64,000 nucleotides of DNA from a phage, in the sequence record OZ346212.1. One strand, 5' to 3'. The notes beneath the pieces were generated by a model that searched no databases, had not been told where the DNA came from, and worked only from the letters and a program-made list of their open reading frames with translations. Below, one piece after another: positions 3,690 through 64,000 of the stretch; within the stretch, counting starts at the first letter, position 1; each line of letters starts with the position of its first letter. The position numbers were made by a program, and so were the translations under genes.

Positions 3690-3974
3690 ATGGTAGTAGA
3701 ACCAACAAAAACATTTACATCCATGACTATCCCTGTTATTATGCAGGTGGAGTGTGTTCAGGTATCTCAAGTGTGGCCTGGCACCAAAATCCCGACAGGG
3801 CCTGATTTCTTTCAGGTTGGCAAAGTGTACAATGTCTGGAAGGCACCAGATTGTTACCCTTTCATCAAAGATGACCGTGGGATGCTGTGGTATCTTGGAA
3901 ATGATTTGACACTGCACCTTGGGAATGCTATTATTGCAGTATTCAGACTTAACAAGAAGGAGACTGATCAATGA
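3690..3974 (+). CDS. hypothetical protein
   Basis: ATG 3690 preceded by AAGAGGAG; longer track ORF (from 3600) would overlap the polymerase 3' end. Confidence 0.5.
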   Translation: MVVEPTKTFTSMTIPVIMQVECVQVSQVWPGTKIPTGPDFFQVGKVYNVWKAPDCYPFIKDDRGMLWYLGNDLTLHLGNAIIAVFRLNKKETDQ

Positions 3975-4198
3975 CGACTTTGGTTAAAGCTACCTTTGTA
4001 GAAGAAAAGATGACAGACCTGTCATTCTTTAAAGAAGGAAAGACCTACGAGGTTTATTACGATAAAGCTCGTGCAAATAAAATGATTAAAGACGAGGAAG
4101 GGGTTGCCTGGTTTATCTCCCATCTGGCAAACGGTGAGTATCATATCTACGGAACCACCCTGCTTGCCAAGTTTGTAGCTGTTGAAGAGGACCTATGA
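3971..4198 (+). CDS. hypothetical protein (75 aa)
   Basis: Track ORF, start overlaps upstream stop (ATGA), co-directional compact packing. Confidence 0.55.
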   Translation: MTTLVKATFVEEKMTDLSFFKEGKTYEVYYDKARANKMIKDEEGVAWFISHLANGEYHIYGTTLLAKFVAVEEDL

Positions 4199-4389
4199 AA
4201 GTAAAGTATCTGGCTGAGGGTATGAGTAGGTATTTCACCCTTGGTGAAGAATATTGGCCATTTACAAGCAACGGCGATGTCTACGTGAAAGATAATTTCG
4301 GCACGCCATGGTTTTTGCACCCTAACGGGTTAGGGTATTCTATTTATCGCAGTGCAATGAGCGACACAACCCTTGCAGAGTTTGTATAG
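4195..4389 (+). CDS. hypothetical protein (64 aa)
   Basis: Track ORF, ATGA overlap with upstream gene. Confidence 0.5.
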   Translation: MKVKYLAEGMSRYFTLGEEYWPFTSNGDVYVKDNFGTPWFLHPNGLGYSIYRSAMSDTTLAEFV

Positions 4390-14019: not shown

Positions 14020-14265
14020 ATGGCAGCACTAATCACCAAATATTATGCCCCTACCAACACCAAAAGCGCCCGTATCATGGTAAAAGGCTTCGGACGTAAA
14101 AAGGTGTACACCTGGGATTATGCCTTAGACACGGAAGACAACTACACCAACGCAATGACCGATTTTATTAATGAACTAAATAAGCAGATCTTGACAAGTT
14201 ATAAAGTGACCGATATTGCTTATATAGGTGAAGGCGGGATCTGTTTTGTAGGCATTGTGAAATAG
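14020..14265 (+). CDS. hypothetical protein (81 aa)
   Basis: SD TAGGAG then ATG. Confidence 0.55.
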   Translation: MAALITKYYAPTNTKSARIMVKGFGRKKVYTWDYALDTEDNYTNAMTDFINELNKQILTSYKVTDIAYIGEGGICFVGIVK

Positions 14266-14339
14266 TTATTTTTTCGGTGGTCCTGGTTGCAGGGCCATCT
14301 ATAAAGATAATTTATTAACACCATGAAAGGAGAAAGTAC

Positions 14340-16591: not shown

Positions 16592-16963
16592 ATGGAATTT
16601 ATTATTTTGGCTGTATTGGTTGCCTTGTTTAACGCCTGGATCGCTGGCAAGATGGGAAGATCCGCCTTTTTATGGTTTATTATATCTATTTTCCTGGGGG
16701 TGGTTGCAACTATTGTATTGGTTATCCTTGCAATTGTTGACAAGGGGAATAATAGAAAGGGTAAAGTATTTTCAGACCTGTACGACGCTCAAACGTTTGT
16801 CAACGCCTATTATAGTGATCTTCCAGTCTCCCTACGTTGCAGCCTTGCACAACAGGTTTTCGATGAAGCTAAAACCAGAGATCACGCCCATGAGATTTGT
16901 TTAACTGAGGCGGATCGCCTATTTGAGAGGAATAGAAAATATGTGGACCAGCCGTTTAAATAA
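16592..16963 (+). CDS. hypothetical membrane protein (two predicted TM helices)
   Basis: ATG 16592 after AAAGAGG; IILAVLVALFNAWIAG and FLWFIISIFLGVVATIVLVILAIV hydrophobic stretches. Confidence 0.55.
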   Translation: MEFIILAVLVALFNAWIAGKMGRSAFLWFIISIFLGVVATIVLVILAIVDKGNNRKGKVFSDLYDAQTFVNAYYSDLPVSLRCSLAQQVFDEAKTRDHAHEICLTEADRLFERNRKYVDQPFK

Positions 16964-29273: not shown

Positions 29274-29744
29274 CTACTTAAATAGTAGTTCAAAATAGTG
29301 CAAAATTAACAGAAGTTGAACTACACCTAGTGCAACGGCGAGTATGTTAATCTTAGAATCGAAAAACTTCTTAACTTTTACTCTAAAAGGTTCCTTAATG
29401 TCCTTTACGATCCTATCTATAGATGACCTCATATCTCTGATTACCATCCTGAACATTAAAGACGGATGCTCCCCCATCTCCGTAACGGAATCGAAAACAT
29501 ACTCTCTTCGGTCATAAGGGCCGCCAGCTCTGCGTATTAACCTCTCCACAGAGACCTCGAACGTCACACCTGTAACGTAATCATCTATAACAAGTCGTGA
29601 CGGGTCTTTACCTTTACTATCAAGAGGTATCAAAGTTATCTTTCCAGATTTTGTTAAAATTTCCCCTTTTTCAAGCAAGGTGTACCAATGCTCTCTGCCA
29701 AGACTGTTGAGGCACGTTTTTACATATTTAACAAACATCGTCAC
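29274..29744 (-). CDS. hypothetical protein with C-terminal TM helix (156 aa)
   Basis: C-terminal ILAVALGVVQLLLILHYF. Confidence 0.5.
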   Translation of the reverse strand: MTMFVKYVKTCLNSLGREHWYTLLEKGEILTKSGKITLIPLDSKGKDPSRLVIDDYVTGVTFEVSVERLIRRAGGPYDRREYVFDSVTEMGEHPSLMFRMVIRDMRSSIDRIVKDIKEPFRVKVKKFFDSKINILAVALGVVQLLLILHYFELLFK

Positions 29745-29944
29745 CCCTCATCGCACGTCTGATATAACCACTCTATAAAATCTTGATACCATTCGCCCTC
29801 TGAGCGCTCCGTAGGCCAATAATCTTCACCCTCTCGTGCATTAAAATCTGAGTATTCAACTTTCCACTCCTTTACCAGCTCGTGGAGAAGGTTTTCAGCC
29901 TGCTCTAAAGATTTATTTTTTACCATTGCTGTCTCCTTTTTCAA
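29741..29944 (-). CDS. hypothetical protein (67 aa)
   Basis: Track ORF. Confidence 0.45.
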   Translation of the reverse strand: MKKETAMVKNKSLEQAENLLHELVKEWKVEYSDFNAREGEDYWPTERSEGEWYQDFIEWLYQTCDEG

Positions 29945-30145: not shown

Positions 30146-30373
30146 TTAGGTGCGGTCTCCATCCCTACTCTCCTTCCTGATATTCTTGTAGTAATCAACT
30201 AGGCACATTATTACGATGAAGATAACAACAGGCCAAAAAGGTGCAGCAGTGATGATGGTGATAAAATCATCAAACTTCACCCTTCGTCTGGACACGATGC
30301 ATACACCTGTCAAGAATACCGCTGTTATAACGGACATTACCAGGTAACCTATTAGCACAACATTTATACTCAT
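30146..30373 (-). CDS. small membrane protein with two TM helices and charged C-terminus (holin-like topology)
   Basis: VVLIGYLVMSVITAVFLTGVCIV and ITIITAAPFWPVVIFIVIMCLV followed by KNIRKESRDGDRT. Confidence 0.45.
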   Translation of the reverse strand: MSINVVLIGYLVMSVITAVFLTGVCIVSRRRVKFDDFITIITAAPFWPVVIFIVIMCLVDYYKNIRKESRDGDRT

Positions 30374-51764: not shown

Positions 51765-52058
51765 TCAAGACTTTTTAGTCTTTCTTGGAGAGCTTTTTGT
51801 TGATCTTTTCCTTTTGTGGTAGATTCCAAGTGCAGCGTTTTCTTGGGCGCACGTTTTAACAGTTCTCAGAGAAGAACTTTCAGCTTTAGGCAGGTTTAAC
51901 TCCCACCAACCGAGCCAGTAAAGTTCTGATTCCGACAGCTGCTCAGATTCAGCCTTCCGATACAATGATTGCATACCTCTAATGATGTCGTCCAGAGGTG
52001 TATCGAATACAAAAGCTGTCTTATCGAATTTCTCTTTTACAGGTCTCTTAGCCATCAA
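51765..52058 (-). CDS. hypothetical protein with basic C-terminus (97 aa)
   Basis: Track ORF; ...HKRKRSTKSSPRKTKKS. Confidence 0.5.
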   Translation of the reverse strand: MMAKRPVKEKFDKTAFVFDTPLDDIIRGMQSLYRKAESEQLSESELYWLGWWELNLPKAESSSLRTVKTCAQENAALGIYHKRKRSTKSSPRKTKKS

Positions 52059-52563
52059 GGTAACCCTCTATCCACGAAAAGTCAGTCTTCCATTCTGGAA
52101 CTTTACTAAGCTCACGCCACTCTGCAAAGCAGTCTCGGTAATACGCCTCTGCCATACTCTTGGTGATCTTATTCACCTTAGCCAACTGATTAACTGCCTG
52201 AGCATACTTTCCACGGATATTTGCTAACCCAGGATGCACCGATGTGTGACAATCCGGGCACAGTGCTATCAGTCCGACAAGCCGGATCACTCCCTCTTCG
52301 AAAGTGTAAAGTTCATGACACTCCACTGGGTGTTTGCTGCCTTTACCGCCGCACACCTCACAAGTGTAGTTGGCTTCTCTATAGCACTTCTTACGTATCT
52401 TATCCCACTCACTCTTCTTCACAGCGTTTCGGAGGTTATTATACCAAGCTGTTTCTGGGATCAGTTGCACAATAAGCCTGCGTTCAGACTTCATTAAACG
52501 TCCGTCTTCCACGTGTTCTCCCTCATTCAAAGAAATGGGTGCGAGGGCAGGAACCTGCCTCAC
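52048..52563 (-). CDS. HNH endonuclease (free-standing)
   Basis: CEVCGGKGS...HPVECHELY...CPDCH zinc/HNH motif pattern. Confidence 0.6.
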   Translation of the reverse strand: MRQVPALAPISLNEGEHVEDGRLMKSERRLIVQLIPETAWYNNLRNAVKKSEWDKIRKKCYREANYTCEVCGGKGSKHPVECHELYTFEEGVIRLVGLIALCPDCHTSVHPGLANIRGKYAQAVNQLAKVNKITKSMAEAYYRDCFAEWRELSKVPEWKTDFSWIEGYLDG

Positions 52564-52729
52564 CTTGTTTCACAAGCTCGTAGAGCTCACCTTGACTTGT
52601 CTCATAAAGGCAAATACGTTTACCATTGTCCCGATATACATCGACAAGATACGCTGTTTCACCTGCAAACACGACACCACAGGCCAGACATGCTACCATG
52701 AACAAAATTGCCAATAGAAAATCTTTCAT
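52523..52729 (-). CDS. small secreted or membrane protein (68 aa)
   Basis: N-terminal LLAILFMVACLACGVVFA signal-like segment, directly downstream of lysozyme. Confidence 0.45.
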   Translation of the reverse strand: MKDFLLAILFMVACLACGVVFAGETAYLVDVYRDNGKRICLYETSQGELYELVKQGEAGSCPRTHFFE

Positions 52730-52792
52730 GGTTAAGCCCTCCTAAACATTTTATGAGGTAACAATACCACGTCCGTGTGGTTATGTCAATGA

Positions 52793-53263
52793 TCAATCAA
52801 GGACAACACCGCCTGCCTTTTTAAACACCTCGATCAACTTCTCGATCTTCTGTTCATGCTGACCATATCCAGCACCAGGTAACGAAGCCCAGCGGGAACG
52901 GCATTTATGGATAGCCTCGTGGATACGCCCTTCGTCAATGTCGGCGAGAGCCTTGCACTCACGGATCAGTTGCAACGCAATCTTGTCCTGACTGGCGGGG
53001 CCAAAATCTGGCAATCCTAACTGTTCCATGTAGTGTTTAGCAAACTTCTCCAAAACCTGGTAACGACCAGCAGCGGAGGAGGTAAGTTTAGCATTTAGCT
53101 TAACGTACACACCTGGATGCTTGCTGTAATCGCTAAACAGCTTGCCACCAACTATGACATCGTATCCCCGATCCTTAGTGGGTTGCCTACCATTATCTGT
53201 GCCTTCCGAATATGCGATCATGTCCAAGAAAGCTTTTCGTTGAACATTTTTATCAAGTTTCAT
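52793..53263 (-). CDS. lysozyme / lytic transglycosylase, lambda R-like endolysin
   Basis: QRKAFLDMIAYSEGTDNGRQ...GYDVIVGG...WASLPGAGYGQHE collinear with lambda R QRKAFLDMLAWSEGTDNGRQ... Confidence 0.85.
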   Translation of the reverse strand: MKLDKNVQRKAFLDMIAYSEGTDNGRQPTKDRGYDVIVGGKLFSDYSKHPGVYVKLNAKLTSSAAGRYQVLEKFAKHYMEQLGLPDFGPASQDKIALQLIRECKALADIDEGRIHEAIHKCRSRWASLPGAGYGQHEQKIEKLIEVFKKAGGVVLD

Positions 53264-53386
53264 TTTTCATACTCTCCAGTTTACTCATAACTAACACGAT
53301 CAACAACACTACACAGTGTGGTTATGTAGGTGCCGATTGAAAACCATCATTCAATTGGCTACCGTTACCTACTGAACCTTCCTACA

Positions 53387-54670
53387 TCATTCAAGCACCT
53401 CCCAAGTGTCTGGGTTAACATTTCGGACGCAGATACCGACAGGGAATTGGTAATTGTTGTCTTCTGTCCTTGCTTGGTATTTGAAGGTGACAAACTTGCC
53501 GATCATTTCCTGCATCCTGTCATAGCTACGCTCCTCGTGCGTGCCTTTCATCTTCATTTTAACAACAACACCTTCCTTGTCAACACAGATAAGAACACCT
53601 TCATCATTCTTATCTTTCTCAACGTCAATAACTTTCACCTCTGCGTCGTTGAACTTTTTCCATTTCAATGCTTCAGATGTTCGCTGACCATACTCATATT
53701 TACCGCAGAAATTACGCATGATAGTACCTTCATATCCTTCGGACATGAATATACCAACAGATTCTTCGCAATGATCAACTGTGTACGCAAGCTCTGCGTC
53801 AACAACCTTGATATGATCAAGCATCAGAGTGGTAACGGTATCCTCTGCATCCATAAGATCCTTGCAGCGTCCAGACTCTGTTTCTGGATCCCACCACACC
53901 TTGTCGCTAGGAATATCAAAAATGTGATACTCCAGATCGTAGCTACAGTATCCACCGTAACGCAAATCATCACGAACAGGCTCAACATCGACAGGAATAT
54001 CTACCTTGTTGAAGTTTTTGTATGTTGATAAGCCTGCCTTAATTGCTGCATGACGGCGTTTTTTATCTGCCTCATAGTCTTTATCGATCTCGGCCTGAAT
54101 CTCTTCCTGTGTGCGCCACCGTTTAGCAAGAGACACTATTTTCTGCAAAGGAAGACCATGAATGTATAGTTCCCCATCAAGTTGTTTAATCCCAGTGGTA
54201 GAATGGAAAGAACGAAGTTGCTCTAAAAGCTTTCCTTGAATAGGGTAGGACTTATTACCACGGGAAATAAATTTAGGCTCACCATTTTGGAAAACAACAA
54301 GCAGACGAAGGCCATCTAACTTACGCAAGATCCAGCAAGGTAATTTAAGTGCCTTGCCACGCTTCAGGTAGTCATGCACCAGCATAGGTAAAAGATCAAC
54401 ACCCTGCTCGCAATCTTCCATGTTTTCAACATACCCCAGACGGACTTGTTTTTCCCACTTGCTGATAGCCTCAAGCTCGGCCTGTTGCTCAGCTGTAGTC
54501 TCGTTGGCACGACCTACGTTTTTAGGTGTACATACCGTCTCTTTGTACTGCAATTTACCGTCAAGCTTGCCAAACTCTACGATAACCTTTTCGCCATCAG
54601 TGAATACTTTCCACTGTTGGTAGCTGCCATCTTTGTTCAGTGCGTACAGTGTTGTTTTGATTTGATGCAT
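53387..54670 (-). CDS. ATP-dependent DNA ligase
   Basis: Adenylation motif I RKLDGLR (KxDGxR). Confidence 0.7.
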   Translation of the reverse strand: MHQIKTTLYALNKDGSYQQWKVFTDGEKVIVEFGKLDGKLQYKETVCTPKNVGRANETTAEQQAELEAISKWEKQVRLGYVENMEDCEQGVDLLPMLVHDYLKRGKALKLPCWILRKLDGLRLLVVFQNGEPKFISRGNKSYPIQGKLLEQLRSFHSTTGIKQLDGELYIHGLPLQKIVSLAKRWRTQEEIQAEIDKDYEADKKRRHAAIKAGLSTYKNFNKVDIPVDVEPVRDDLRYGGYCSYDLEYHIFDIPSDKVWWDPETESGRCKDLMDAEDTVTTLMLDHIKVVDAELAYTVDHCEESVGIFMSEGYEGTIMRNFCGKYEYGQRTSEALKWKKFNDAEVKVIDVEKDKNDEGVLICVDKEGVVVKMKMKGTHEERSYDRMQEMIGKFVTFKYQARTEDNNYQFPVGICVRNVNPDTWEVLE

Positions 54671-54939
54671 TACTCGGCCTCTTCCTTAAAAATTTTAAAC
54701 ATCTCTTCTTTACTCATTACCAACCAGTCTCCCATAAAGTCAACTAACCAATCTCCCTGGTACAAAACCAAGTTGCCAAACGGCTCAACAAGCTCACACA
54801 TGCGACGAATATCTCTGGTCCGAACAGGTGACGATGTAAACACACCTGTATCAATCCACCGTTGCAGATCAGATACTGATGAAGAGCTTCCATCAAACTG
54901 GTGTGCTTCTACAGGTTTAGCAAGATTAAATAACGGCAT
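54670..54939 (-). CDS. hypothetical protein (89 aa)
   Basis: Track ORF; ATGA overlap. Confidence 0.5.
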   Translation of the reverse strand: MPLFNLAKPVEAHQFDGSSSSVSDLQRWIDTGVFTSSPVRTRDIRRMCELVEPFGNLVLYQGDWLVDFMGDWLVMSKEEMFKIFKEEAE

Positions 54940-55234
54940 TGCAGTCCTCCTTCTGTAGTAGGTCTTTTATAGGATAAACAAGTAAGTGTGGATCGGAATA
55001 ACGTATAGTCCTATTCTGCCACACTATGAACTTTATTACAACCAAATTTACAATATCTTTATCACCATGTAGCCCAACACACACATTTGTCCATATTTTG
55101 TGGTTGAAGATCTTGCTATCGATGTAGATTTTAGTGTCAAACTTATCTTCCATTCTACCTATAAGTTTGATCAGCTCCTTCATCTGGTCGCCAAACACAG
55201 CATCTTTTTCAAGATCTCTGGAATGCTTGTACAT
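54926..55234 (-). CDS. hypothetical protein (102 aa)
   Basis: Track ORF. Confidence 0.5.
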   Translation of the reverse strand: MYKHSRDLEKDAVFGDQMKELIKLIGRMEDKFDTKIYIDSKIFNHKIWTNVCVGLHGDKDIVNLVVIKFIVWQNRTIRYSDPHLLVYPIKDLLQKEDCNAVI

Positions 55235-55296
55235 AACTAACTACCTCACTGCATACTTTCCATAATAAGTAAAGCCGGGTAATCCCGGCTATGTTG

Positions 55297-56010
55297 TTAA
55301 ATATACTCTGTTACATCCTTGAAGCTCGAAGGCTTCATAATCTTACCTTTACTGTCAAGGAATATAATAACTTTATTACCGTTGTAGAACTCCTCTTTAG
55401 CAACGAAACCTTCGTAGCGACCACCAAAACGACGCTCAAGATCTTCAATCTCTAACTCTATGAGCAATTCAGTAGACATATCTGCACTGGCACCGTGAGA
55501 ATATCGTAGATGGTTGATCCGTGCAAACTTGCTGTCATTAGATTTGAGAACCTTCCGCATCATCCCACACACATCGCCGCGAAGCTGGAACAGCAAAGCT
55601 GTTGACAACTCCGCTAAGCGGTAAGCTGACGCTCTTTGCTTGGATGTGTTTTTCGCAGCGATCAGTGTATCATAGAACTCACCGATCTTGAACTTAAGAC
55701 CTCGTGGATTATCAAACAGGTTTGACCACTTTTCGTGATTATCATTAACAAGATAAGCGGCATAACTTGTGACAACGTGAAGATCGCAGGCCTCTTTTAG
55801 CAGGTGATCTCCACCATCACCTTTCTCCAGCTCTTCCAAAACCTCATTGAACTCTTCCTCAATGAAGCTAAGCTGTAATTCGAATGGTGTGTATGATTTT
55901 TTCACTTTAGCTGCCACACGGTTCCAGTTTTCCACCCAGTTGGCAGACCAAAGGTAGTTTTCAGGCTGAGACAGTTTTTCCAGGTTGTCGATCAGTTTAG
56001 TATTCAGCAT
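55297..56010 (-). CDS. hypothetical protein, possibly MazG-like NTP pyrophosphohydrolase
   Basis: EEEFNEVLEELEKGD...LKEACDLHVV reminiscent of MazG EExxE...EA...D pattern; weak. Confidence 0.3.
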   Translation of the reverse strand: MLNTKLIDNLEKLSQPENYLWSANWVENWNRVAAKVKKSYTPFELQLSFIEEEFNEVLEELEKGDGGDHLLKEACDLHVVTSYAAYLVNDNHEKWSNLFDNPRGLKFKIGEFYDTLIAAKNTSKQRASAYRLAELSTALLFQLRGDVCGMMRKVLKSNDSKFARINHLRYSHGASADMSTELLIELEIEDLERRFGGRYEGFVAKEEFYNGNKVIIFLDSKGKIMKPSSFKDVTEYI

Positions 56011-56023
56011 TAAAGGTCTCCTT

Positions 56024-56785
56024 TTAAAGTTCCATAAAGTTTTCTACAGTTTCAATAAATGCTTTATCAGAGAAAGCGTCAACAGCACCGTTAAACCATA
56101 CAGGGATCCCGCGATCCTCATATTGATAAAGGTCGCTACGTGAAATGCCACTCCCATCTGCACTCTGCGAGTCATACTTGTTTACAATCAGCAGTTTTGT
56201 GCCTTTACAAGTAGCAGGAAACAATTCCCAGTTAAAATTAATAACTGTGTTAGAACAACCTACTAGGATCACCATATCATTGCTTGTGAGAGATGTCAAC
56301 AGGTCATACATGTCTGTATACTTAGGAGCAACCTCACCGAAGAACACTACATTGGGCTTAACCCAGGTATACTTGCCTGTATCTACCTCCGTGTATCCGA
56401 TATTTTTAATTACATCATTACCTTCAGCATCTTCGTAGGTGATTTCAGGCAAATACCCGTGGACATGTAAAATATCTTCATGTTTTACACCAGCACGCTC
56501 CAGCAAATCATCTACATTGGTGGTAAGGTTGATCACACGACCAGACCAGCGGGAATACCACTCAGCGATCCGAAGATGTGCAAGGTTAGGATCAACACTG
56601 CCCAGAGCTACACGACGTGCATTGTAAAAGTCATGCACCTTATAGTAGTTCTTGGCAAAGGTGTGGATGTTGCACACCTCATCGATGCTGAAATTCTCCC
56701 ACATTGCAGTGCTACCAGATCGGAAAGTGGGAATACCAGATTCAGCGCTCAAACCAGCACCGGAGATAATAATCAGTCGTCGCAT
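56024..56785 (-). CDS. Sir2-family (sirtuin-like) NAD-dependent protein lacking zinc-ribbon cysteines
   Basis: Rossmann signature IIISGAGLSAESGIPTFRS and catalytic-His region LHVHG; no CxxC...CxxC pairs. Confidence 0.75.
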   Translation of the reverse strand: MRRLIIISGAGLSAESGIPTFRSGSTAMWENFSIDEVCNIHTFAKNYYKVHDFYNARRVALGSVDPNLAHLRIAEWYSRWSGRVINLTTNVDDLLERAGVKHEDILHVHGYLPEITYEDAEGNDVIKNIGYTEVDTGKYTWVKPNVVFFGEVAPKYTDMYDLLTSLTSNDMVILVGCSNTVINFNWELFPATCKGTKLLIVNKYDSQSADGSGISRSDLYQYEDRGIPVWFNGAVDAFSDKAFIETVENFMEL

Positions 56786-56793
56786 AAGTGTCC

Positions 56794-57144
56794 TCAGTAG
56801 ATGTTTTGTTTAATCTCTATTCCAAACTTCTTGAATGAGTCAGCAGCAAGCATAAATTTACGAGCTGCCGATGGATTAGAAGTATGCACGAAAATAATCA
56901 CGTTGTCAATAAGTGGTGGCTTTCCGAATACAAGTTTCTCCTCTAGCGCAGAGAAGCAGTCGTACCCTTCAAGCACTTCACCTAGATCATTGTCAAAATA
57001 CCACTCAGATACGCGTCTGTAGAGCTTTCTCTTATCATTAAGAAAATCCATAAACTCAGAAGAATTCTTTAGCCACAGAGCGTCTGGGAGTCCATAATCT
57101 GACGGATCTCTAAAATCATCAAGCCACACAATCCACTTCTTCAT
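56794..57144 (-). CDS. hypothetical protein (116 aa)
   Basis: Track ORF between the sirtuin-like and ligase-like genes. Confidence 0.5.
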   Translation of the reverse strand: MKKWIVWLDDFRDPSDYGLPDALWLKNSSEFMDFLNDKRKLYRRVSEWYFDNDLGEVLEGYDCFSALEEKLVFGKPPLIDNVIIFVHTSNPSAARKFMLAADSFKKFGIEIKQNIY

Positions 57145-58076
57145 TGCATATAGTCCTCGTTGTGGAAATAGTAGTCCAGTATCTCACGACGCTCCTGCTC
57201 TAATAAGCAATTCCACACATCTTCTGTATAGTTGCTACGAATAAATTTTACCATACCGTAAAACTCTTCGTCAACACGTTTAAAGATATCATCATCCCAA
57301 ATCTTCCAAGCTTTACCCCTCATTACTGCCTTCCGTGCCAGATAGTATGGAGACTTGATCTTCAGCTGCAGATCATAAGGGTAGTAAGGCTTACGAATCA
57401 TATACCCTTCACCTCTTGTTTCTGCAGCTAATTCTTTTGCATAGCTGAACGGAATTTCACGCACAGTGTTAGGACGTTTTGCACCAAGGTATTTGGCAAT
57501 CCCATCTAAAGCTGCTTCTGGTAGCATTATTCCAGAATCATTATATCTGCAACCTATCAAATATGCGCCATGGTCTTCTTGAACAATATGCGGATCTGAA
57601 GGGTGACAAATTTCAAACATGAATGTCATGTTTTCATTGCCCATAACCTTCTTGATAAGATCTAAATTACCACATTGCTCTTGGATGGTTTCCTTTGCAA
57701 GGTTACAATATGGAGAATCAAGAGACCCGGTTGTTGAGAACAATAGGTCACCTTTATGAGATGATACCACACCAAGGAATCCGTTCTTTTTCTCTACCGC
57801 AGTCACAAGCTTATTGTCAGGCAGGTTGGTGGAGTTTTCTCCCAAGTTAAACACTTTTGTGAAGGGCCATGCCACAACATTTCCTTCATTACCTACAACA
57901 ATGCCTCGGCACTCCAGTAAACGAGGGGACAAATGCCATAAATTGTTGTAAAATACTTTTCTAGCATATTTATAGATCTTTAACCCGAGATCTGGGTAAT
58001 ACCTACTGGTTACAAGACCTTTGTCAACTAGGTCGTCTGCATTAAAATACTTCATTATATGTTCCTCATTTGTCAT
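57141..58076 (-). CDS. putative RNA ligase / nucleotidyltransferase (ligase superfamily)
   Basis: Candidate motif I VEKKNGF (KxNG); divergently paired with P-loop kinase and phosphoesterase next to tRNA genes. Confidence 0.4.
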   Translation of the reverse strand: MTNEEHIMKYFNADDLVDKGLVTSRYYPDLGLKIYKYARKVFYNNLWHLSPRLLECRGIVVGNEGNVVAWPFTKVFNLGENSTNLPDNKLVTAVEKKNGFLGVVSSHKGDLLFSTTGSLDSPYCNLAKETIQEQCGNLDLIKKVMGNENMTFMFEICHPSDPHIVQEDHGAYLIGCRYNDSGIMLPEAALDGIAKYLGAKRPNTVREIPFSYAKELAAETRGEGYMIRKPYYPYDLQLKIKSPYYLARKAVMRGKAWKIWDDDIFKRVDEEFYGMVKFIRSNYTEDVWNCLLEQERREILDYYFHNEDYMQ

Positions 58077-58176
58077 TTTGTCAGTCTATCCTGCCACACA
58101 AATAACCTAGTGTCAACACTTGAAATTAACAAAACAGTTAGGTATACTACCGTTGAAATTAAAACGGAGGGTCGCT

Positions 58177-58587
58177 ATGTCTAAAATGCTATATATCGTG
58201 CGTGGTCTACCAGGGTCTGGCAAATCAACACTGGCAAATGAGCTATCTTTAGAGGGTCTGTATCCACATTTTGAGAACGACATGTTCTGGTATGACGATG
58301 ACGGCAATTACAACTGGGATGCAAGTAAAGTAACACTCGCAGCAAAATGGTGCAAAGATAACGTAGAAGATATGATGCGTATGGGATACGACCGTATCGT
58401 GGTAAGTAATACGTTTACAAAAGAAAAACATGTGCAGGAATATGTTGACATGGCAATCACTCACGGGTATAGTTATACCGTGATCGTGGTTGAAAACCGC
58501 CACGGTAATAAAAGCATTCATGATGTTCCAGACAAGGTTGTGGATCGTATGGAACGCCAGCTTAAAAACTGCATTAAACTTAAATGA
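58177..58587 (+). CDS. P-loop polynucleotide-kinase-like protein
   Basis: ATG 58177 after GGAGGG; Walker A GLPGSGKST; track ORF start 58120 lies in promoter. Confidence 0.6.
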   Translation: MSKMLYIVRGLPGSGKSTLANELSLEGLYPHFENDMFWYDDDGNYNWDASKVTLAAKWCKDNVEDMMRMGYDRIVVSNTFTKEKHVQEYVDMAITHGYSYTVIVVENRHGNKSIHDVPDKVVDRMERQLKNCIKLK

Positions 58588-58594
58588 GGAATGT

Positions 58595-59149
58595 ATGAAA
58601 TACTTTGTAACAAGCGACACACACTTTCTCCACCAGCGGGTCATGGAGTTTGATTCATGTCAAAAACACAGATCTCAGTATGATCACAATCTTGACAGTA
58701 TGAATGCAGGAATCATCGCCGAGTGGAACTCTGTTGTGTCACCTGCAGACACTGTGTTCCACTTGGGAGATATTGCGTGCACTAATGATAAGAATATCAA
58801 CAACTTACTTCCAGATATTCTAAATATGTTGAACGGACATATTATTCTTGTTCGTGGCAACCATGACACAAGGACGACTGTCAGAATTATGAAAGAGTTC
58901 GGTCATGAGGTTGTAGATTATTACGAGCTTCGCCACAACAAGAATTTGATCTGTATGAGCCATTACCAGTTTGCAAAGTGGAACAGAAAGCCTCACGGAT
59001 CAGTCCAACTGTTCGGTCATGCTCACGGAACCACACAACAGTTGTTTGGCAGGCAGCTTGATGTCGGTTGGGATGTGTGGGGGAGACTCTTACCATTAGA
59101 AGAGGCATACCGTATTGCAATGAGTTTTGATATTGACAGCAGGGAGTAA
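58595..59149 (+). CDS. calcineurin-like metallophosphoesterase
   Basis: MPP motifs SDTHF, GDIAC, GNHD; ATG 58595 after GAGGA. Confidence 0.65.
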   Translation: MKYFVTSDTHFLHQRVMEFDSCQKHRSQYDHNLDSMNAGIIAEWNSVVSPADTVFHLGDIACTNDKNINNLLPDILNMLNGHIILVRGNHDTRTTVRIMKEFGHEVVDYYELRHNKNLICMSHYQFAKWNRKPHGSVQLFGHAHGTTQQLFGRQLDVGWDVWGRLLPLEEAYRIAMSFDIDSRE

Positions 59150-59196
59150 TCCCTGCTATTTTAAAGAAAATTGCCACACAAGGAGAATCAGGAGAT

Positions 59197-59547
59197 ATGA
59201 AAGATGGGGATAAGCTGCTATATCTTAAAGTCCCCCTTGAAATACTATCTATGTCAAAAGTTTTGAATGACACAACTGGGGAGGTTGTTGTTCTTGACTT
59301 GTATGACAAGATCGTATACTGCTACCTGCACAACTGGTATAAGCTTGGAGGAAATTCACGCTTCACACCAAGCACAAGGAAAATTGCAGCAGATGTTGGG
59401 ATAAAGAAAACAAAAGCAGCAGCGTGCGTTAAAACTTTAGAATGTGCAGGAGTGGTTGAAACATCCACACAAGGGAGAGGTAAAAGATGCACATTTTCCA
59501 AAGTTTTGCCACCAGAAGAAGTTATTCGGATGTCAACAACTGGTTAG
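59197..59547 (+). CDS. putative HTH DNA-binding protein
   Basis: Helix-turn-helix-like STRKIAADVGIKKTKAAACVKTLECAGVV; immediately upstream of iteron array. Confidence 0.5.
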   Translation: MKDGDKLLYLKVPLEILSMSKVLNDTTGEVVVLDLYDKIVYCYLHNWYKLGGNSRFTPSTRKIAADVGIKKTKAAACVKTLECAGVVETSTQGRGKRCTFSKVLPPEEVIRMSTTG

Positions 59548-59621
59548 ACCAGTAAAAACTTAAATATCTGTACTATAAGGATTCGTATGTTTTATGTTCG
59601 CCATGGAACGGATACTATTAA

Positions 59622-59704
59622 CTGTCCGTGATACGGACACTACTGTCCGTCACGCGGACACATCTGCCCGTAATACGGACACTAACTGTCCGTGATACGG
59701 ACAC
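59622..59704. repeat. four phased palindromic iterons (CTGTCCGTGATACGGACAC, 21-22 bp period)
   Basis: Copies at 59622, 59643, 59664, 59686; each an inverted repeat TGTCCGT-N3-ACGGACA; followed by AT-rich tract to about 59830. Confidence 0.85.
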
Positions 59705-59829
59705 ATAAAGAATATAACTAAAATAACTAAATAATAAAAAATAAAAGATCTAGTACTTATGGTACTAAGTACATATACTTAACTTATGTAGAATATACTA
59801 GATCCTAAGTACCATGTTTTAAATTTATT

Positions 59830-60100
59830 ACTTACTATGGGCAGTGTCGGCCCTTCATTGGCACTCGCCTACGAGGGGGCGAGATGCCGGGCCTCCTTGG
59901 CGCACACAATAACAGAAGTTCATACATGCAGGTCTGTTAACATGTGTGGGAGCGAAGCGATAGCGCAGGCCAAAGGCCGAGCACTGATGTGGACCACCGA
60001 CGAAAGCTTGCCAGCGCCGTAAGGAGTCGGTTGAGAGTCTCCCGCGCGAGCTTGGATGAAGTTTATGTGTGGAAACTGACAAGAAGGCCCCTAAATCGCT
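59830..60100. ncRNA. GC-rich structured non-coding segment (candidate ncRNA, identity unknown)
   Basis: Sharp GC jump in an AT-rich genome; nested hairpins e.g. GGCA-CTCGCC-tacgaggg-GGCGAG-a-TGCC; both-strand ORFs are not protein-like and lack SD. Confidence 0.3.
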
Positions 60101-60208
60101 CCACAGCTATATAAACTATACCAGGTAATGCAATCGCACCAGTTTGATAGAAAAGCTCGTTACAAAGCGATACAGTGAGTTTTTCTATAACTTGAAGAGG
60201 AGGCAGCT

Positions 60209-60787
60209 ATGGGTTCACGCAAAGATGACCGTGAAAAGATTGCAAAACGTTATCAGAATGAAGAACAGATGGAGAAAACTTTCAAGTGGAAGCCAGGTTT
60301 CCAGCGTAATCATTCTAACGCTCGTGATCGTAAGCATCCGGATAAGTGGCTAACACCGCCAAATGATGGCATGCAGGTTGGGGATGAGAAGGAGATGTCG
60401 CCTGGAAAAGATGGCAACTACATTCGCACTAAGGACGCTGGTCCAAAGGATGACAGCTATCTTGTAGATAAGGTTCTTGATGGTATCAATGTAGATGTTG
60501 ACACTGCACGAAACCTTTTTCTTGGGTGGTATCGCACAGGTTTTTTCGACATCAAGGCTATTCGTCGTGTTTGTGATATTAAAAAGTCTGCATATGATGA
60601 CGACTCGTTACATCGCACCCTGAGACAATATTCAGAAAGATATGGTCATCCGGTTATCACTCTTGACGATGTTAACGAAGTGATGTATCATGCAGAGGTT
60701 GTTGCAGGAAGATTCGGTGATGCATATCTTGATATCCTTTCTGCAAAGGATGAGGTAATGTTAAATAAGATTTACTATGAACGCTGA
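60209..60787 (+). CDS. hypothetical protein (192 aa)
   Basis: SD GAGGAGG then ATG. Confidence 0.6.
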   Translation: MGSRKDDREKIAKRYQNEEQMEKTFKWKPGFQRNHSNARDRKHPDKWLTPPNDGMQVGDEKEMSPGKDGNYIRTKDAGPKDDSYLVDKVLDGINVDVDTARNLFLGWYRTGFFDIKAIRRVCDIKKSAYDDDSLHRTLRQYSERYGHPVITLDDVNEVMYHAEVVAGRFGDAYLDILSAKDEVMLNKIYYER

Positions 60788-60797
60788 GGAGCGCTTA

Positions 60798-60986
60798 ATG
60801 AACAACCCGGTAGCAAAGAACTGTAATAAGTTCAACAAGTCTGCAATTCACACTGACAGGAAAAAGAGCTGGTCTCCTGACATTGACGAGGAGCTTGAGA
60901 GTTACTTTGAAGACCTGGTCACTAATGCAGATGAGGTTGCGATTAAAGAATACGCAGACAGGAAGGATAAGGCCGGAATCTGTTGA
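60798..60986 (+). CDS. hypothetical protein
   Basis: Internal ATG 60798 after GAGGAG; track ORF starts 60777. Confidence 0.45.
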   Translation: MNNPVAKNCNKFNKSAIHTDRKKSWSPDIDEELESYFEDLVTNADEVAIKEYADRKDKAGIC

Positions 60987-61062
60987 CAAAAATAGTGTTA
61001 CCTGATAAGATCTGCAATATGATGTGATGCAATTTTAACTTACGAGGTCTACAGGTAATGCT

Positions 61063-61305
61063 ATGTTTAAGGTTAAGCTCGTTTTTCGTTCCATGAATGA
61101 GGATTATTTAGAAGATGAAGGTGAATTTCGTGCACTGGATGATGCAATAGATTTTGCCAACGACTTAGCTTGTATGAATACGGGTTATGGGCTATGCTGT
61201 TGGGATGGTGGTGTTCAGATCGGTGATAGCAAGATCTTCTACTTCTACCCTGAGCCTGATAACAAACAAATTAAGTATGTTTTATTTATTTGTGCTTTAC
61301 AATGA
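61063..61305 (+). CDS. hypothetical protein (80 aa)
   Basis: Preceded by TTGACA promoter at about 60984. Confidence 0.5.
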   Translation: MFKVKLVFRSMNEDYLEDEGEFRALDDAIDFANDLACMNTGYGLCCWDGGVQIGDSKIFYFYPEPDNKQIKYVLFICALQ

Positions 61306-61329
61306 GGTTGTTTTCGTGTATCATGATGA

Positions 61330-61592
61330 ATATCCAATTTAAAGATGAATTTGATGGCTTTATCTCCGGATGCTTTGAAACAGGGTTCGGAGAAGGCTGA
61401 GTTCCCCTTAGAGGGCTTGATAGTGCACCACACTTAAAATGGTAGGGGCAGCCAGCACATGACGATGTGACCCCAGCCAACCTGTAATAAGGTCGAGCCA
61501 AAGTGCGGTAATGGGCTCTGGTAACCCACTTGTTGGGTCTTGCTGGTCCAGGACGCTGGACAAGTCGCAGGGAATACCACCCTGCGGCGAAC
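61330..61592. other. second GC-rich structured non-coding segment
   Basis: No protein-like ORF on either strand; hairpins TCCAG-gacg-CTGGA, GCAGGG-aatacca-CCCTGC. Confidence 0.3.
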
Positions 61593-61621
61593 TTGACAAT
61601 CAGTATTTGCTATGATAAAAT
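61593..61621 (+). promoter_or_regulatory. sigma70-type promoter (TTGACA-17-TAAAAT)
   Basis: Hexamers 57 nt upstream of ATG 61650. Confidence 0.55.
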
Positions 61622-61649
61622 CCACCTATCACGTGATAATGGAGGAAAC

Positions 61650-61988
61650 ATGGCGGATACAACTAAAAAGCGTCGCCGTAGAGGCAGACCTCTGAAAGAG
61701 GAGTCCAACGCCATTCAGCTAGAGAAGAACATCCTTGATATGAAGGAATCTTTTATAGCGATGGTTCCAGAAGCTCACAAAGTTTTAAGAGAGCTGATGT
61801 TGGACCCGAAAACCAAACAAAATATTCGTCAAAGCATTGCAGAGTATGTTCTTGATAAGGCAGACCGAATGCAGGAAGAATATGATGAGATGTTTGGTGA
61901 AGAGGAAGAGGTGGTAGTAGAAGAGGCTGAAAAACCAGCACCTTTTATGCCATTCACCACAGAAATACAGCCTGTTGGCAATAGTTAA
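61650..61988 (+). CDS. AT-hook-containing acidic protein
   Basis: ATG 61650 after GGAGGA; KKRRRRGRPLK AT-hook-like motif, acidic C-terminal half. Confidence 0.55.
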   Translation: MADTTKKRRRRGRPLKEESNAIQLEKNILDMKESFIAMVPEAHKVLRELMLDPKTKQNIRQSIAEYVLDKADRMQEEYDEMFGEEEEVVVEEAEKPAPFMPFTTEIQPVGNS

Positions 61989-61997
61989 AATATTTTC

Positions 61998-62026
61998 TTG
62001 ACAAACTTTGCTTAACAGTGTAATAT
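61998..62026 (+). promoter_or_regulatory. sigma70-type promoter driving tRNA cluster (TTGACA-17-TAATAT)
   Basis: Consensus hexamers about 60 nt upstream of first tRNA. Confidence 0.6.
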
Positions 62027-62084
62027 TGTAAACATGGTCTCCCACCTTTTCTGGCGGCTAAGGTGTAAAAGAAAGCCACCCAGT

Positions 62085-62159
62085 GCCCTGTTAGCTTAGT
62101 GGATAAAGCAGCGGCCTTCTAAGCCGTTGACACTGGTTCGAGTCCAGTACGGGGTGCCA
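62085..62159 (+). tRNA. tRNA-Arg (anticodon UCU)
   Basis: Hand-folded cloverleaf: acceptor GCCCTGT/ACGGGGT, anticodon loop CTTCTAA, T-loop TTCGAGT, encoded CCA. Confidence 0.8.
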
Positions 62160-62163
62160 AATT

Positions 62164-62250
62164 GGGGAGTTATCCCGTAGAGGTAGCGGTGTAGACTGTA
62201 AATCTATTGTCATTGCGACTCGGGTGGTTCGACTCCACCACTCCCCACCA
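62164..62250 (+). tRNA. tRNA-Tyr (anticodon GUA), long variable arm
   Basis: Acceptor GGGGAGT/ACTCCCC, anticodon loop CTGTAAA, T-loop TTCGACT, CCA; overall like E. coli tRNA-Tyr. Confidence 0.8.
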
Positions 62251-62364
62251 AATTTATATTTTTAGATGCATAAATAATACAGATAATGGCATTGATATTT
62301 ATCGTCGTTTATACTAGTCACTAACTGCTCGAAAATCAGTGTCATTATCAGTATTATTTATAAA

Positions 62365-62455
62365 GGAGGGTAGGGAGCAATGGTGCTCAATCGGTCTTGA
62401 AAACCGTCCCGTTGAGGATGACTCGATGATGGTTCGATTCCATTACTCTCCGCCA
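62365..62455 (+). tRNA. tRNA-Ser (anticodon UGA), long variable arm
   Basis: Acceptor GGAGGGT/ACTCTCC, anticodon loop CTTGAAA, 20-nt variable arm, T-loop TTCGATT, CCA. Confidence 0.75.
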
Positions 62456-62553
62456 CATTGTTGACCTTGTAATTAAGCGAAAGTCGGAAGCAGAACCGGA
62501 TTATCAAATGTTACAGTCGTCATCGCCGACTAGCAACATGGTCAACATACTGA

Positions 62554-62650
62554 GCTAGGTAAGCCCTTTGGCAAGGGCGAGGATTTTTAATCCTGAAAAT
62601 AGACGAGGTAGTCGTTGAATACATAGGTGGTTCGATTCCATCACCTAGCA
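62554..62650 (+). tRNA. atypical 97-nt tRNA-like gene (possibly Lys-UUU with about 29-nt variable region) or pseudo-tRNA
   Basis: Perfect acceptor GCTAGGT/ACCTAGC, D-arm GCCC...GGGC, hairpin with loop TTTTTAA, extra hairpin ACGA-ggtag-TCGT, T-arm GGTGG-TTCGATT-CCATC; no encoded CCA. Confidence 0.35.
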
Positions 62651-62657
62651 CCTTTTT

Positions 62658-62733
62658 GCTGATGTAGCACAATCGGTAGTGCAATTGATTTGTAATCAAT
62701 AGGTTGTAGGTTCAAGTCCTGCCATCAGCACCA
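62658..62733 (+). tRNA. tRNA-Thr (anticodon UGU)
   Basis: Acceptor GCTGATG/CATCAGC, anticodon stem ATTGA/TCAAT with loop TTTGTAA, T-loop TTCAAGT, CCA. Confidence 0.85.
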
Positions 62734-62734
62734 A

Positions 62735-62809
62735 GGCCCTGTAGCTGGAAGGTTCAAGCAAGCGACTCATAATCGCCAGACGGTGGTTCAATTCCACCCA
62801 GGGCCACCA
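62735..62809 (+). tRNA. tRNA-Met or Ile2 (anticodon CAU), elongator type
   Basis: Acceptor GGCCCTG/CAGGGCC fully paired (not initiator-like), anticodon loop CTCATAA, T-loop TTCAATT, CCA. Confidence 0.75.
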
Positions 62810-62820
62810 AATAGTAAATA

Positions 62821-62897
62821 CTCCGCGTAGCTCAGCTTGGTAGAGCGCCTGATTTGGGATCAGGAGGTCGAGTGTTCGAATCACTCCGTGGAGACCA
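62821..62897 (+). tRNA. tRNA-Pro (anticodon UGG)
   Basis: Acceptor CTCCGCG/CGTGGAG, D-arm GCTC...GAGC, anticodon stem CCTGA/TCAGG with loop TTTGGGA, T-loop TTCGAAT, CCA. Confidence 0.85.
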
Positions 62898-62943
62898 CTT
62901 TCAGTTATACTTTAAACATATATAAACAAAAGGAACCTTTAAA

Positions 62944-63213
62944 ATGTATACACTTAAAATTGTAGAGCGTGTAAATCCAACTCATACCGTAGATTTTCGT
63001 GACGATTTCAATCCTCTGGCTGTAAATCTTCGAGAGTCATATCATGAACTCAGCTGCGATGCAGTGGTGGTCTTTTTTGAAGACAACTCTGAAGGGGCGG
63101 TAGCTTGTGTTGTTGATAGTGAGCAGAAGTTTTATATTTACAGAGATGTAGATGCATACTTGATGAATGAAAACGCAGTTACTGTTAGAATCATCCACCG
63201 AGTGCCTCGATAA
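62944..63213 (+). CDS. hypothetical protein (89 aa)
   Basis: SD AAAAGGAA then ATG, followed by terminator. Confidence 0.55.
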   Translation: MYTLKIVERVNPTHTVDFRDDFNPLAVNLRESYHELSCDAVVVFFEDNSEGAVACVVDSEQKFYIYRDVDAYLMNENAVTVRIIHRVPR

Positions 63214-63269
63214 GTATTAGTCTCCTTTTAGTTAGTTTCGATCTATTTAGGTTACTCAATTTTAACCCG

Positions 63270-63300
63270 CCCCGTTAGCTGTATAGCTGCGGGGTTTTTT
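63270..63300 (+). terminator. rho-independent terminator
   Basis: CCCCG...CGGGG stem followed by TTTTTT. Confidence 0.7.
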
Positions 63301-63318
63301 CGTTTCTGGAGCCTTAAA

Positions 63319-63717
63319 ATGATTTCAGGTTTAACATGGCTGAGTAGGTATAGAGGGATCATAAAAGGTTTAGTTTTTGCAGCGGCTATAGGTACAGCTT
63401 ATCTTGGGGCCGTGTATTGGTTTAACTCTAAGCTTAATGAAGCCTACCAAGAAGGTGTGTTAGCAACAGAGTTGAAGTGGGAACGGATCCTTGATCAGCA
63501 ACAAAAGCAGGCCGACAAAATTAAAATGGGCCACGCAGAGGAGGTTAAAAACCTTGAAAAATCCCTTTCTGATCTACAGGATAAATTAAATATAGCTGAG
63601 AGGGCAGGTAGAGAAAAGCAGATTATCTACCTCCAATCACCTGAAGGTAAGAAGTCAACACTTCCTGATCAGCTTATAGATATTTATAATGAGAGTATCA
63701 ATCAGGAGGATCGATGA
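63319..63717 (+). CDS. putative i-spanin (Rz-like)
   Basis: N-terminal TM helix LVFAAAIGTAYLGAVYWF then charged coiled-coil-like periplasmic region; overlaps lipoprotein gene by ATGA. Confidence 0.5.
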   Translation: MISGLTWLSRYRGIIKGLVFAAAIGTAYLGAVYWFNSKLNEAYQEGVLATELKWERILDQQQKQADKIKMGHAEEVKNLEKSLSDLQDKLNIAERAGREKQIIYLQSPEGKKSTLPDQLIDIYNESINQEDR

Positions 63718-64000
63718 GAGTTGCCGCACTGTTTATTGCGTGCTTGTTATTATGTGGGTGTGCAACAAGCGTTGAGAGAGAATACAAGATTGACCCTCCG
63801 GATGTAGGAAGGTTGATTGTTAAACCCCCAGAAGGTGCCATGAAACCACCTGCTAAGGCTATGCCTTTGAAGAAAGGTGCGCCAGATGCAGTGAATTCTG
63901 GCATTATGAGGGATAATAATCTGTCTTGTAGCAATGATAGAGCTAAATTGATCATTTTGCAAGACTATATTAGAACACTGTTTCCAAAGGAGAGAGGTTA
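63714..64000 (+). CDS. putative o-spanin (Rz1-like lipoprotein), 3'-truncated by window end
   Basis: MRVAALFIACLLLCGCA lipoprotein signal with lipobox-like LCGC; proline-rich mature part (DPPDVGRLIVKPPEGAMKPPAKAMP). Confidence 0.55.
   Translation, partial: MRVAALFIACLLLCGCATSVEREYKIDPPDVGRLIVKPPEGAMKPPAKAMPLKKGAPDAVNSGIMRDNNLSCSNDRAKLIILQDYIRTLFPKERG

Follow-up and report, generated by a model that had tools for sequence, protein, structure and literature searches.

The window analyzed here, a stretch of 64,000 nucleotides of phage DNA (sequence record OZ346212.1), carries predicted lysis genes at two separate loci: an endolysin gene at 52793-53263 on the minus strand, and a pair of spanin genes at 63319-63717 and 63714-64000 on the plus strand. 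A distance of 10,056 bp, which includes seven tRNA genes (62085-62897), separates the two loci. A megablast search of phage records with positions 52000-64000 as the query returned 751 matching records, and the top matches were the rV5-like coliphages naswa, magaca, and isim, with identities of 99.2-99.7% over the full 12 kb. Because the best matches were rV5-like phages, the window was assigned to a Vequintavirus genome; by sequence similarity, it represents about 64 kb of an rV5-like E. coli phage genome of ~137 kb. GC skew and the layout of open reading frames (ORFs) indicated three transcription blocks, which run on the plus strand to ~21 kb, on the minus strand from 21 to 58.1 kb, and on the plus strand from 58.1 kb to the end. 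The endolysin gene sits in the leftward block among genes of DNA metabolism, including ligase, exonuclease, and ribonucleotide reductase genes. An earlier reading made from the letters alone (the sequence-only reading) had described the lysis functions as dispersed, and every feature it claimed was found where it had been placed.

The endolysin is a protein of 156 amino acids (aa) of the lambda R type (GH104 lytic transglycosylase family) and an ortholog of rV5 gp89 and of LysECP26. Its residues 4-154 aligned with the phage lambda lysozyme/transglycosylase R (PDB 1AM7, E=3e-56), and it matched the PDB entries 1AM7/3D3D at E~4e-56 and the PHROG family phrog_90, labeled "endolysin", at 3e-56. 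In total, 94 of the 156 residues (60%) are identical to those of lambda R, and a tblastn search with the endolysin matched the "R/endolysin" genes of lambda, HK97, P2, and SfII. The catalytic glutamate is kept in a YSEGT motif, where AYSEGTDNG in the window corresponds to AWSEGTDNG in lambda (Glu20 here, Glu19 in lambda). These matches and the retained glutamate bear out the call of a lambda-R-like lysozyme made in the sequence-only reading, which was also accurate in stating that the gene is followed only by a small signal-peptide protein (52523-52729) and an HNH gene on the same strand. The same gene is called "endolysin" in the records of Murica, MiataMamis, and WalterGehring. No hydrophobic segment was found in the protein (the maximum 19-residue Kyte-Doolittle mean was 0.42), which therefore has neither a signal peptide nor a signal-anchor-release (SAR) domain, and it is predicted to be a soluble, cytoplasmic, and holin-dependent enzyme. 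LysECP26, an ortholog of 156 aa that shares 98% identity with the rV5 lysin and has the catalytic Glu20, was muralytic in purified form and lyses permeabilized Gram-negative cells (LysECP26 study). By homology and by the biochemistry of this ortholog, the window endolysin is expected to be muralytic, with a predicted transglycosylase chemistry.

At the second locus, the i-spanin gene (63319-63717, plus strand; rV5 gp67) encodes a protein of 132 aa that matched phrog_4297, labeled "Rz-like spanin" (1e-47). The protein has a single N-terminal transmembrane domain (TMD) at approximately residues 14-32, as in a type II membrane protein, followed by a predicted helical periplasmic part of 97 aa that is 35% charged and includes two prolines and no cysteine. 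The o-spanin gene (63714-64000, plus strand; rV5 gp66), of which the window end cuts the final base of the stop codon, matched phrog_1267, also labeled "Rz-like spanin" (2e-22). Its product includes the lipobox LCG/C (Cys16; MRVAALFIACLLLCG/C) and a mature part of 80 aa with 11% proline and one further cysteine (C72). The two genes share four nucleotides (ATGA, 63714-63717), with the o-spanin start over the i-spanin stop.

The sequence-only reading had placed an overlapping Rz/Rz1-like pair on the other strand, 10 kb from the lysozyme and beyond the tRNAs, and had proposed a check by TMD and lipobox prediction. The position was confirmed, the predictions above agree with a transmembrane protein followed by a proline-rich lipoprotein, and the genes do overlap. 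However, the overlap is only 4 nt, which corresponds to the "separated" layout of T4 and not to the embedded one of lambda Rz/Rz1. The spanins were recognized later than the lysin of rV5; the genes are labeled i-spanin and o-spanin in Murica and in BASEL phages such as WalterGehring, and the order in relatives is i-spanin, o-spanin, and large terminase (TerL). A census of spanins lists "rv5" families, where membership rests on sequence features, and gives at least one homotypic disulfide as a general rule for spanins (spanin census). With one periplasmic cysteine in the o-spanin and none in the i-spanin, C72 alone could satisfy this rule. The region from 63319 to 64000 and beyond is best described as a two-component spanin of predicted function.

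In relatives such as Murica, the stop codon of the o-spanin gene shares bases with the start codon of TerL (TAATG), and the late packaging block therefore begins with the two spanin genes. A strong intrinsic terminator was found on the plus strand at 63270-63300 (a 10-bp stem with one bulge, a GTAT loop, and T6), ending 18 nt 5' of the i-spanin ATG, and the same terminator is marked in the Murica record (14248-14272 of the fetched locus). A contiguous holin-endolysin-spanin transcription unit of the lambda type was not found in the window. Likewise, the annotation and a membrane-protein survey of the coding strands of the complete WalterGehring genome (140.7 kb), a close relative, revealed no holin-endolysin-spanin cassette. 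The sequence-only reading had left room for a canonical cassette elsewhere in the genome; the genome-wide search of this relative found none, and the dispersal of the endolysin and spanins over 10 kb and two strands stands. This dispersed arrangement is already known, as it has been in print for rV5 since 2013.

The rV5-like phage very probably uses the ordinary pathway from holin to endolysin to spanin, with its genes scattered as they are in T4. The soluble lambda-R-type endolysin would be made from the leftward DNA-metabolism block and would accumulate harmlessly in the cytoplasm. The i-spanin and o-spanin would be produced alongside the virion proteins, because the o-spanin stop overlaps the large-terminase start, and would then wait in the envelope. 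The time of lysis would be set by an unlinked hole-forming holin, which would have to exist because the endolysin lacks both a signal peptide and a SAR domain. In the established model, the triggering of the holin times lysis, and a cytoplasmic endolysin and spanins may be made early and from any locus. The sequence-only reading had concluded that a non-cassette system implies unusual regulation, which does not follow: holin triggering is the clock, T4 offers a precedent with unlinked genes, and therefore no special regulation is called for, and the endolysin and spanin genes may change position and promoter freely.

Several observations weigh against this pathway. PHROGs, Pfam, and NCBIfam profile searches with every small membrane protein encoded in the window or in WalterGehring gave no holin-family match for any candidate. 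A literature search on Vequintavirinae for transcriptomes, expression timing, or holin genetics found none. No recognizable promoter was found between the terminator and the i-spanin gene; as the terminator ends 18 nt from the i-spanin gene and leaves no room for a promoter, transcription of the spanin and TerL genes would apparently require read-through or a promoter of an unrecognized type. The late-promoter motif of rV5, TGGTAAAATA, had 15 matches with at most one mismatch against 6.6 expected, none of them usefully 5' of the endolysin, the spanins, or the holin candidates, and a generic scan for promoters and terminators was non-discriminating (38 promoter-like sites against 28 expected). 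Finally, relatives carry a second, Sec-exported SleB-like wall hydrolase outside the window. In WalterGehring, this signal-bearing enzyme (PF07486, 2e-19) is encoded within 58990-62685, directly 5' of rIIA/rIIB. The SleB-like enzyme is conserved across Vequintavirinae (CB7 paper), and it may be a second lysis enzyme.

Directly 3' of the endolysin gene, at 52523-52729 on the minus strand, is a gene for a predicted secreted mini-protein of 68 aa (rV5 gp90) with an N-terminal hydrophobic stretch, which matched phrog_4641, a family with no function label. A homolog search of 5.8 billion proteins identified 11 clusters with identities down to 61%. In the alignment of these homologs, residues 3-22 are variable and the N-terminal cysteines (Cys14 and Cys17) are unconserved, with an AxA-like site kept, and residues 23-68 are almost invariant, C40 and C61 included. 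An AlphaFold2 (AF2) model of the protein (pLDDT 82) consists of an N-terminal helix and a four-stranded sheet, and a Foldseek search of the PDB with this model returned generic small beta-folds only, none below E=0.02. The alignment and model together predict a Sec signal peptide cleaved after VFA22 and a periplasmic beta domain of ~46 aa, likely with a disulfide. A lipoprotein and a holin were both considered for this protein and rejected, as Cys14, Cys17, and the hydrophobic stretch are unconserved and it is the soluble part that is conserved.

The 68-aa gene was directly 3' of the endolysin gene in every genome examined that has it, including the relatives at 61% identity. In diverged relatives, where the endolysin is 64% and the exonuclease 78% identical, the pair is shifted relative to the exonuclease gene. 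A sigma-70-type promoter (TTGACA-17-TATTGT with TG) was predicted at 52761-52789 on the minus strand, 3' of the endolysin stop and 5' of the 68-aa gene. It matched 10 of 12 consensus positions with an extended -10 in a consensus scan, and it is the promoter listed as P090 in Table S4 of the rV5 2013 paper. In L006, a diverged relative (unit 3939-4204), a better-matching promoter (TTGACA-17-TATACT) occupies the same place. By these sequence comparisons, the endolysin and 68-aa genes constitute a conserved unit of two genes that are separated by a consensus sigma-70-type promoter. Additionally, the 11-mer CATAACCACAC is present on the minus strand 5' of both the endolysin gene (53330-53345) and the 68-aa gene (52773-52788), where the second copy falls within the spacer of the predicted promoter; the shared 11-mer could reflect chance or a common regulatory site.

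Two endolysin alleles, about 65-66% identical to each other, were observed in the genus: the window carries the type A allele and VB-EcoM-WM the type B allele. The second allele was found in VB-EcoM-WM (1788-2980 of the fetched locus) and in RudolfGeigy, where an extra homing endonuclease ORF abuts the endolysin start, and this suggests an allele replacement driven by the endonuclease. In VB-EcoM-WM, the 68-aa protein is 97% identical although the endolysin is the 66% allele with a homing endonuclease upstream, and the small protein is therefore not co-adapted to the enzyme. In the more distant Kashira phage, an endolysin of the same type occurs with neither the 68-aa gene nor an adjacent membrane protein. 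The next gene in the window (52048-52512 within an ORF at 52048-52563, minus strand; rV5 gp91) encodes a homing-type HNH endonuclease (phrog_5200 "HNH endonuclease", 3.5e-72). It has the same label in Murica and WalterGehring and is missing at the corresponding place in the diverged relatives L006 and L007; it probably represents a mobile insertion with no part in lysis.

About 15 small membrane proteins are encoded on the coding strands of the window and about 20 genome-wide. By this count, the protein encoded at 30146-30373 on the minus strand, put forward in the sequence-only reading as the best holin-like candidate, is not the only one of its kind. The protein of 75 aa (phrog_10061, no function label) has two TMDs and a charged tail, and it is the ortholog of rV5 gp129, annotated as "putative holin". 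Its hydrophobic segments span residues 1-30 and 36-62, followed by the K/R/D/E-rich tail DYYKNIRKESRDGDRT; a small membrane protein with a charged C-terminus fits this description, but so do many phage membrane proteins that are not holins. The gene region is 88.5% identical to V5 94058-94291, which corresponds to gp129, and 116 records contained homologs, all within the genus and at identities of 55-100%. In an alignment of 26 clusters, the second TMD and the loop "RRVKFDDFITIITAAPFWPVV" are conserved, and the first TMD and the tail are variable. The ortholog in the window lacks a KEK triplet of the tail that is found in most homologs, which are 78 aa long. Its gene is linked neither to the endolysin gene, at a distance of 22 kb, nor to the spanin genes, at 33 kb. 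In the 2013 paper on rV5 (Kropinski), gp89 was identified as the lysin, no holin homolog was found, and gp129 was proposed as a holin separate from the lysin as in T4. The proposal of the sequence-only reading that this protein is the best holin candidate was not upheld as a secure assignment: two hydrophobic segments and a charged tail are present, but the protein matches no holin family, is limited to the genus, and has been passed over by other annotators.

The neighborhood of the gp129 ortholog was also considered. The BASEL annotation labels the gene 5' of it a "putative glycosidase", and the two genes were examined as a second endolysin-holin pair; no Pfam, PHROG-function, or PDB sequence match was obtained, and the lead was dropped. 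The putative glycosidase has only two homolog clusters, and its AF2 model is weak (pLDDT 67) with no fold match, by which the label is neither confirmed nor disproved. Also within this array of small genes, 29274-29744 on the minus strand encodes a protein of 156 aa with a C-terminal TMD that matched phrog_7821, "virion structural protein"; its rV5 ortholog, gp133, has been detected in virions by mass spectrometry.

Another candidate from the window is encoded at 16592-16963 on the plus strand. The protein of 123 aa (phrog_13090, no function label) corresponds to rV5 gp183 and to bas51_0117, a "putative holin" of the BASEL annotation, and homologs at >=90% identity were found in 119 Vequintavirus records. 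Outside the window, the late tail-fiber clusters of Vequintavirinae include two to three genes for small membrane proteins (phrog_5345, phrog_7451, and phrog_1322) after the tail-fiber assembly gene, as observed in the fetched loci of CR3 (2501-3581), GEC_vB_MG (2501-3570), and L003 (38472-40197). A resemblance of phrog_1322 to class II holins of the T7 type was considered and dropped, as no profile match supported it.

Published holin calls for these phages are in conflict: gp129 was chosen by Kropinski, gp183 by BASEL, and none in the genomes from the Center for Phage Technology, and the LL12 and Gotham (2020) announcements state that a holin could not be identified. At least five in silico candidates, all putative, were compared, and a late-operon holin outside the window was ranked slightly above gp129 and gp183. 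The holin is tentatively, and still with more doubt than confidence, sought in the late tail-fiber cluster, as phrog_1322 (bas51_0039 of WalterGehring, 88 aa) and/or phrog_5345 (rV5 gp31, 104 aa, a TMD and a coiled coil). Both genes are in the late structural operon, and no other small membrane protein is conserved outside the genus, with phrog_1322 in 375 records and also in phi92-like phages, and phrog_5345 in 224 records spanning Vequintavirinae; they were ranked above gp129 because of this wider conservation and the late-operon position. In Certrevirus and Seunavirus, a cluster of three membrane-protein genes is directly 3' of the tail-fiber assembly gene, a position analogous to that of T4 t after gene 38, and the BME3 record labels a homolog of phrog_1322 "membrane protein-holin". 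However, this label is in silico only, neither family matches a holin family, the hydrophobicity of phrog_1322 is moderate and under the TM cutoff used, and genes in tail-fiber clusters may code instead for assembly factors or for proteins of superinfection exclusion. The sharing of these proteins by phages with different endolysins is neutral evidence. A class-II-type holin formed by the 75-aa gp129 ortholog, about 22 kb from the endolysin, was judged unlikely, though not by much less than the late-cluster proteins. Besides its two hydrophobic segments and charged C-terminal tail, its second TMD and cytoplasmic loop are strongly conserved across the 26 clusters, and gp129 was the sole rV5 protein given two TMDs by both TMHMM and Phobius (rV5 2013 paper). 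Against these features, the protein has no holin-family match, is the most variable and a genus-limited candidate, and has a topology that is ambiguous under the positive-inside rule. Its gene lies within a long array of small uncharacterized genes far from the lysis and late genes, with no late-type motif directly 5' (the nearest match, at 29916-29925, is downstream of the gene), the "glycosidase" label of its neighbor was not reproduced, and records of the LL12/Murica type from the Center for Phage Technology keep it as hypothetical. The 123-aa gp183, as annotated by BASEL, was rated slightly lower still, though the gp129 ortholog has no better support than it. At the N-terminus of gp183, two strong TMDs precede a juxtamembrane stretch rich in K/R; the protein is well kept in the genus and is labeled "putative holin" in the WalterGehring record, but it is restricted to the genus, matches no holin family, and ends in a soluble, folded-looking domain of ~70 aa that is atypical for small holins. 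Its gene is in an array of small uncharacterized genes where sigma-70 promoters were predicted by the rV5 authors, who labeled the protein merely "membrane protein, 1-2 TMD".

The remaining alternatives concern the gene beside the endolysin and the genome outside the window. If the 68-aa protein were a holin or a membrane-anchored antiholin, the endolysin and 68-aa genes would constitute a minimal cassette, in agreement with the hydrophobic N-terminus and with a position immediately 3' of the endolysin that is preserved even where the genomic location differs in the 61% relatives. This was considered very unlikely, since the hydrophobic stretch acts like a cleavable signal peptide and the conserved part is a soluble beta domain of 46 aa; signal cleavage would leave the protein without a TMD, and therefore hole formation would be impossible. 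Moreover, the TM predictors of the rV5 authors gave gp90 no TMD, the gene has its own sigma-70-type promoter, and the protein remains 97% identical beside the 66% endolysin allele, which argues against co-adaptation. As a hypothesis only, by analogy with T4, a periplasmic regulatory or exclusion role like that of RI or Spackle may be proposed for it. A combination in which Vequintavirus phages possess a holin of an undescribed family (gp129-like, or phrog_1322/phrog_5345) together with the 68-aa protein as a new periplasmic lysis modulator was rated as doubtful as the gp183 assignment. If true, the modulator would act like T4 RI (an antiholin) or T4 Spackle (a lysozyme inhibitor involved in superinfection exclusion), while being unrelated to both. 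Least probable of all is a canonical holin-endolysin-spanin cassette elsewhere in the genome, which would render the window genes accessory. The window represents only about 64 of about 137 kb, and a second, SleB-like hydrolase does exist in relatives, but the complete annotation of WalterGehring includes no such cluster, the genome-wide TM survey identified no membrane protein adjoining the SleB-like gene (its neighbors are a soluble protein of 126 aa and rIIA), and the absence of a cassette is reported by several independent genome papers. The ordinary pathway with scattered genes is the reading retained here.

Besides the lysis genes, an Rfam scan of the window identified tRNAs only. One tRNA-like gene (62554-62652, plus strand) is 99 nt long, with a four-base anticodon (atcc) by ARAGORN and an Rfam tRNA score of 35.5 bits. 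It is labeled differently among relatives, as "tRNA-OTHER Asp|Gly" in Murica and tRNA-Lys in WalterGehring, with no label in MiataMamis, and it may be an intron-containing, frameshift-suppressor-like, or degenerate tRNA. Additionally, about 16-21 unannotated GenBank records named "Campylobacter phage" (MG0656xx, host C. jejuni) are near-identical to E. coli rV5-like phages, and are probably mislabeled or contaminating coliphages.

The scattered genes, the spanins by the terminase, and the holin candidate are all in the literature, and the arrangement as stated matters little. The additions of this analysis are modest: a holin role was excluded for the gene next to the endolysin, and the candidates were ranked. 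Phages like rV5 are common in cocktails for phage therapy and biocontrol, and the holin sets latent period and burst size; a list ranked by conservation and operon position makes the holin question testable by lambda S-amber complementation.

Compared with the SRRzRz1 genes of lambda, the window has a homologous endolysin (E=3e-56, 60% identity, and the catalytic glutamate) and what is predicted to be a functionally equivalent two-component spanin. It differs from lambda in the absence of an S-like holin 5' of the endolysin, in the lack of contiguity, and in an o-spanin gene that is not embedded. Lambda Rz has two cysteines, whereas the i-spanin of the window has none.

The likeness to T4 includes a large virulent myovirus, a soluble endolysin, a "separated" spanin pair with a stop/start overlap, and unlinked lysis loci, and homologs of rIIA/rIIB, as in T4, are present in relatives of the window. 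The T4 lysis genes e, t, and pseT.2/pseT.3 are unlinked (spanin census), and the separation of holin and lysin was compared with T4 by the rV5 authors themselves (rV5 2013 paper). In contrast to T4, the window endolysin is of the lambda R type and not T4 lysozyme (the ortholog LysECP26 has identities of 62% and 33%, respectively), neither the T4 holin T nor the antiholins RI and RIII had a detected homolog, and the spanin genes head the packaging operon and are not among the early genes.

The closest correspondence is to the rV5 group itself. In rV5, Murica, LL12, and BASEL Bas48-57, orthologous lysis genes occur in the same order and with the same spacing, at nucleotide identities of 97-99.7% over 52000-64000, and the annotations of the group are identical to the window, with endolysin, i-spanin, and o-spanin then TerL. 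The window departs from the group in allelic detail only, by the KEK-less gp129 tail and by a type A instead of a type B endolysin. Among more distant relatives, CB7 and CR3 (Certrevirus), PVP-SE1 (Seunavirus), and BME3 resemble the window in having spanins beside the large terminase, a solitary endolysin, and an uncertain holin, and they have the late-operon membrane proteins phrog_5345 and phrog_1322 in common with rV5-like phages. The Certrevirus, Seunavirus, and phi92-like phages differ by other endolysins (M15 peptidase, modular gp146-type, and SleB-like) and by the absence of the 68-aa endolysin-linked gene. For CB7, the proposed holin overlaps the SleB-like gene, and a spanin arrangement as in the window has been described for CB7/rV5 and T4 (CB7 paper). 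Later work likewise places the spanins next to TerL and notes the lack of a cassette and of an identifiable holin, and a scattered layout of the lysis genes has also been stated for Gotham (2020) and BME3 (2025).

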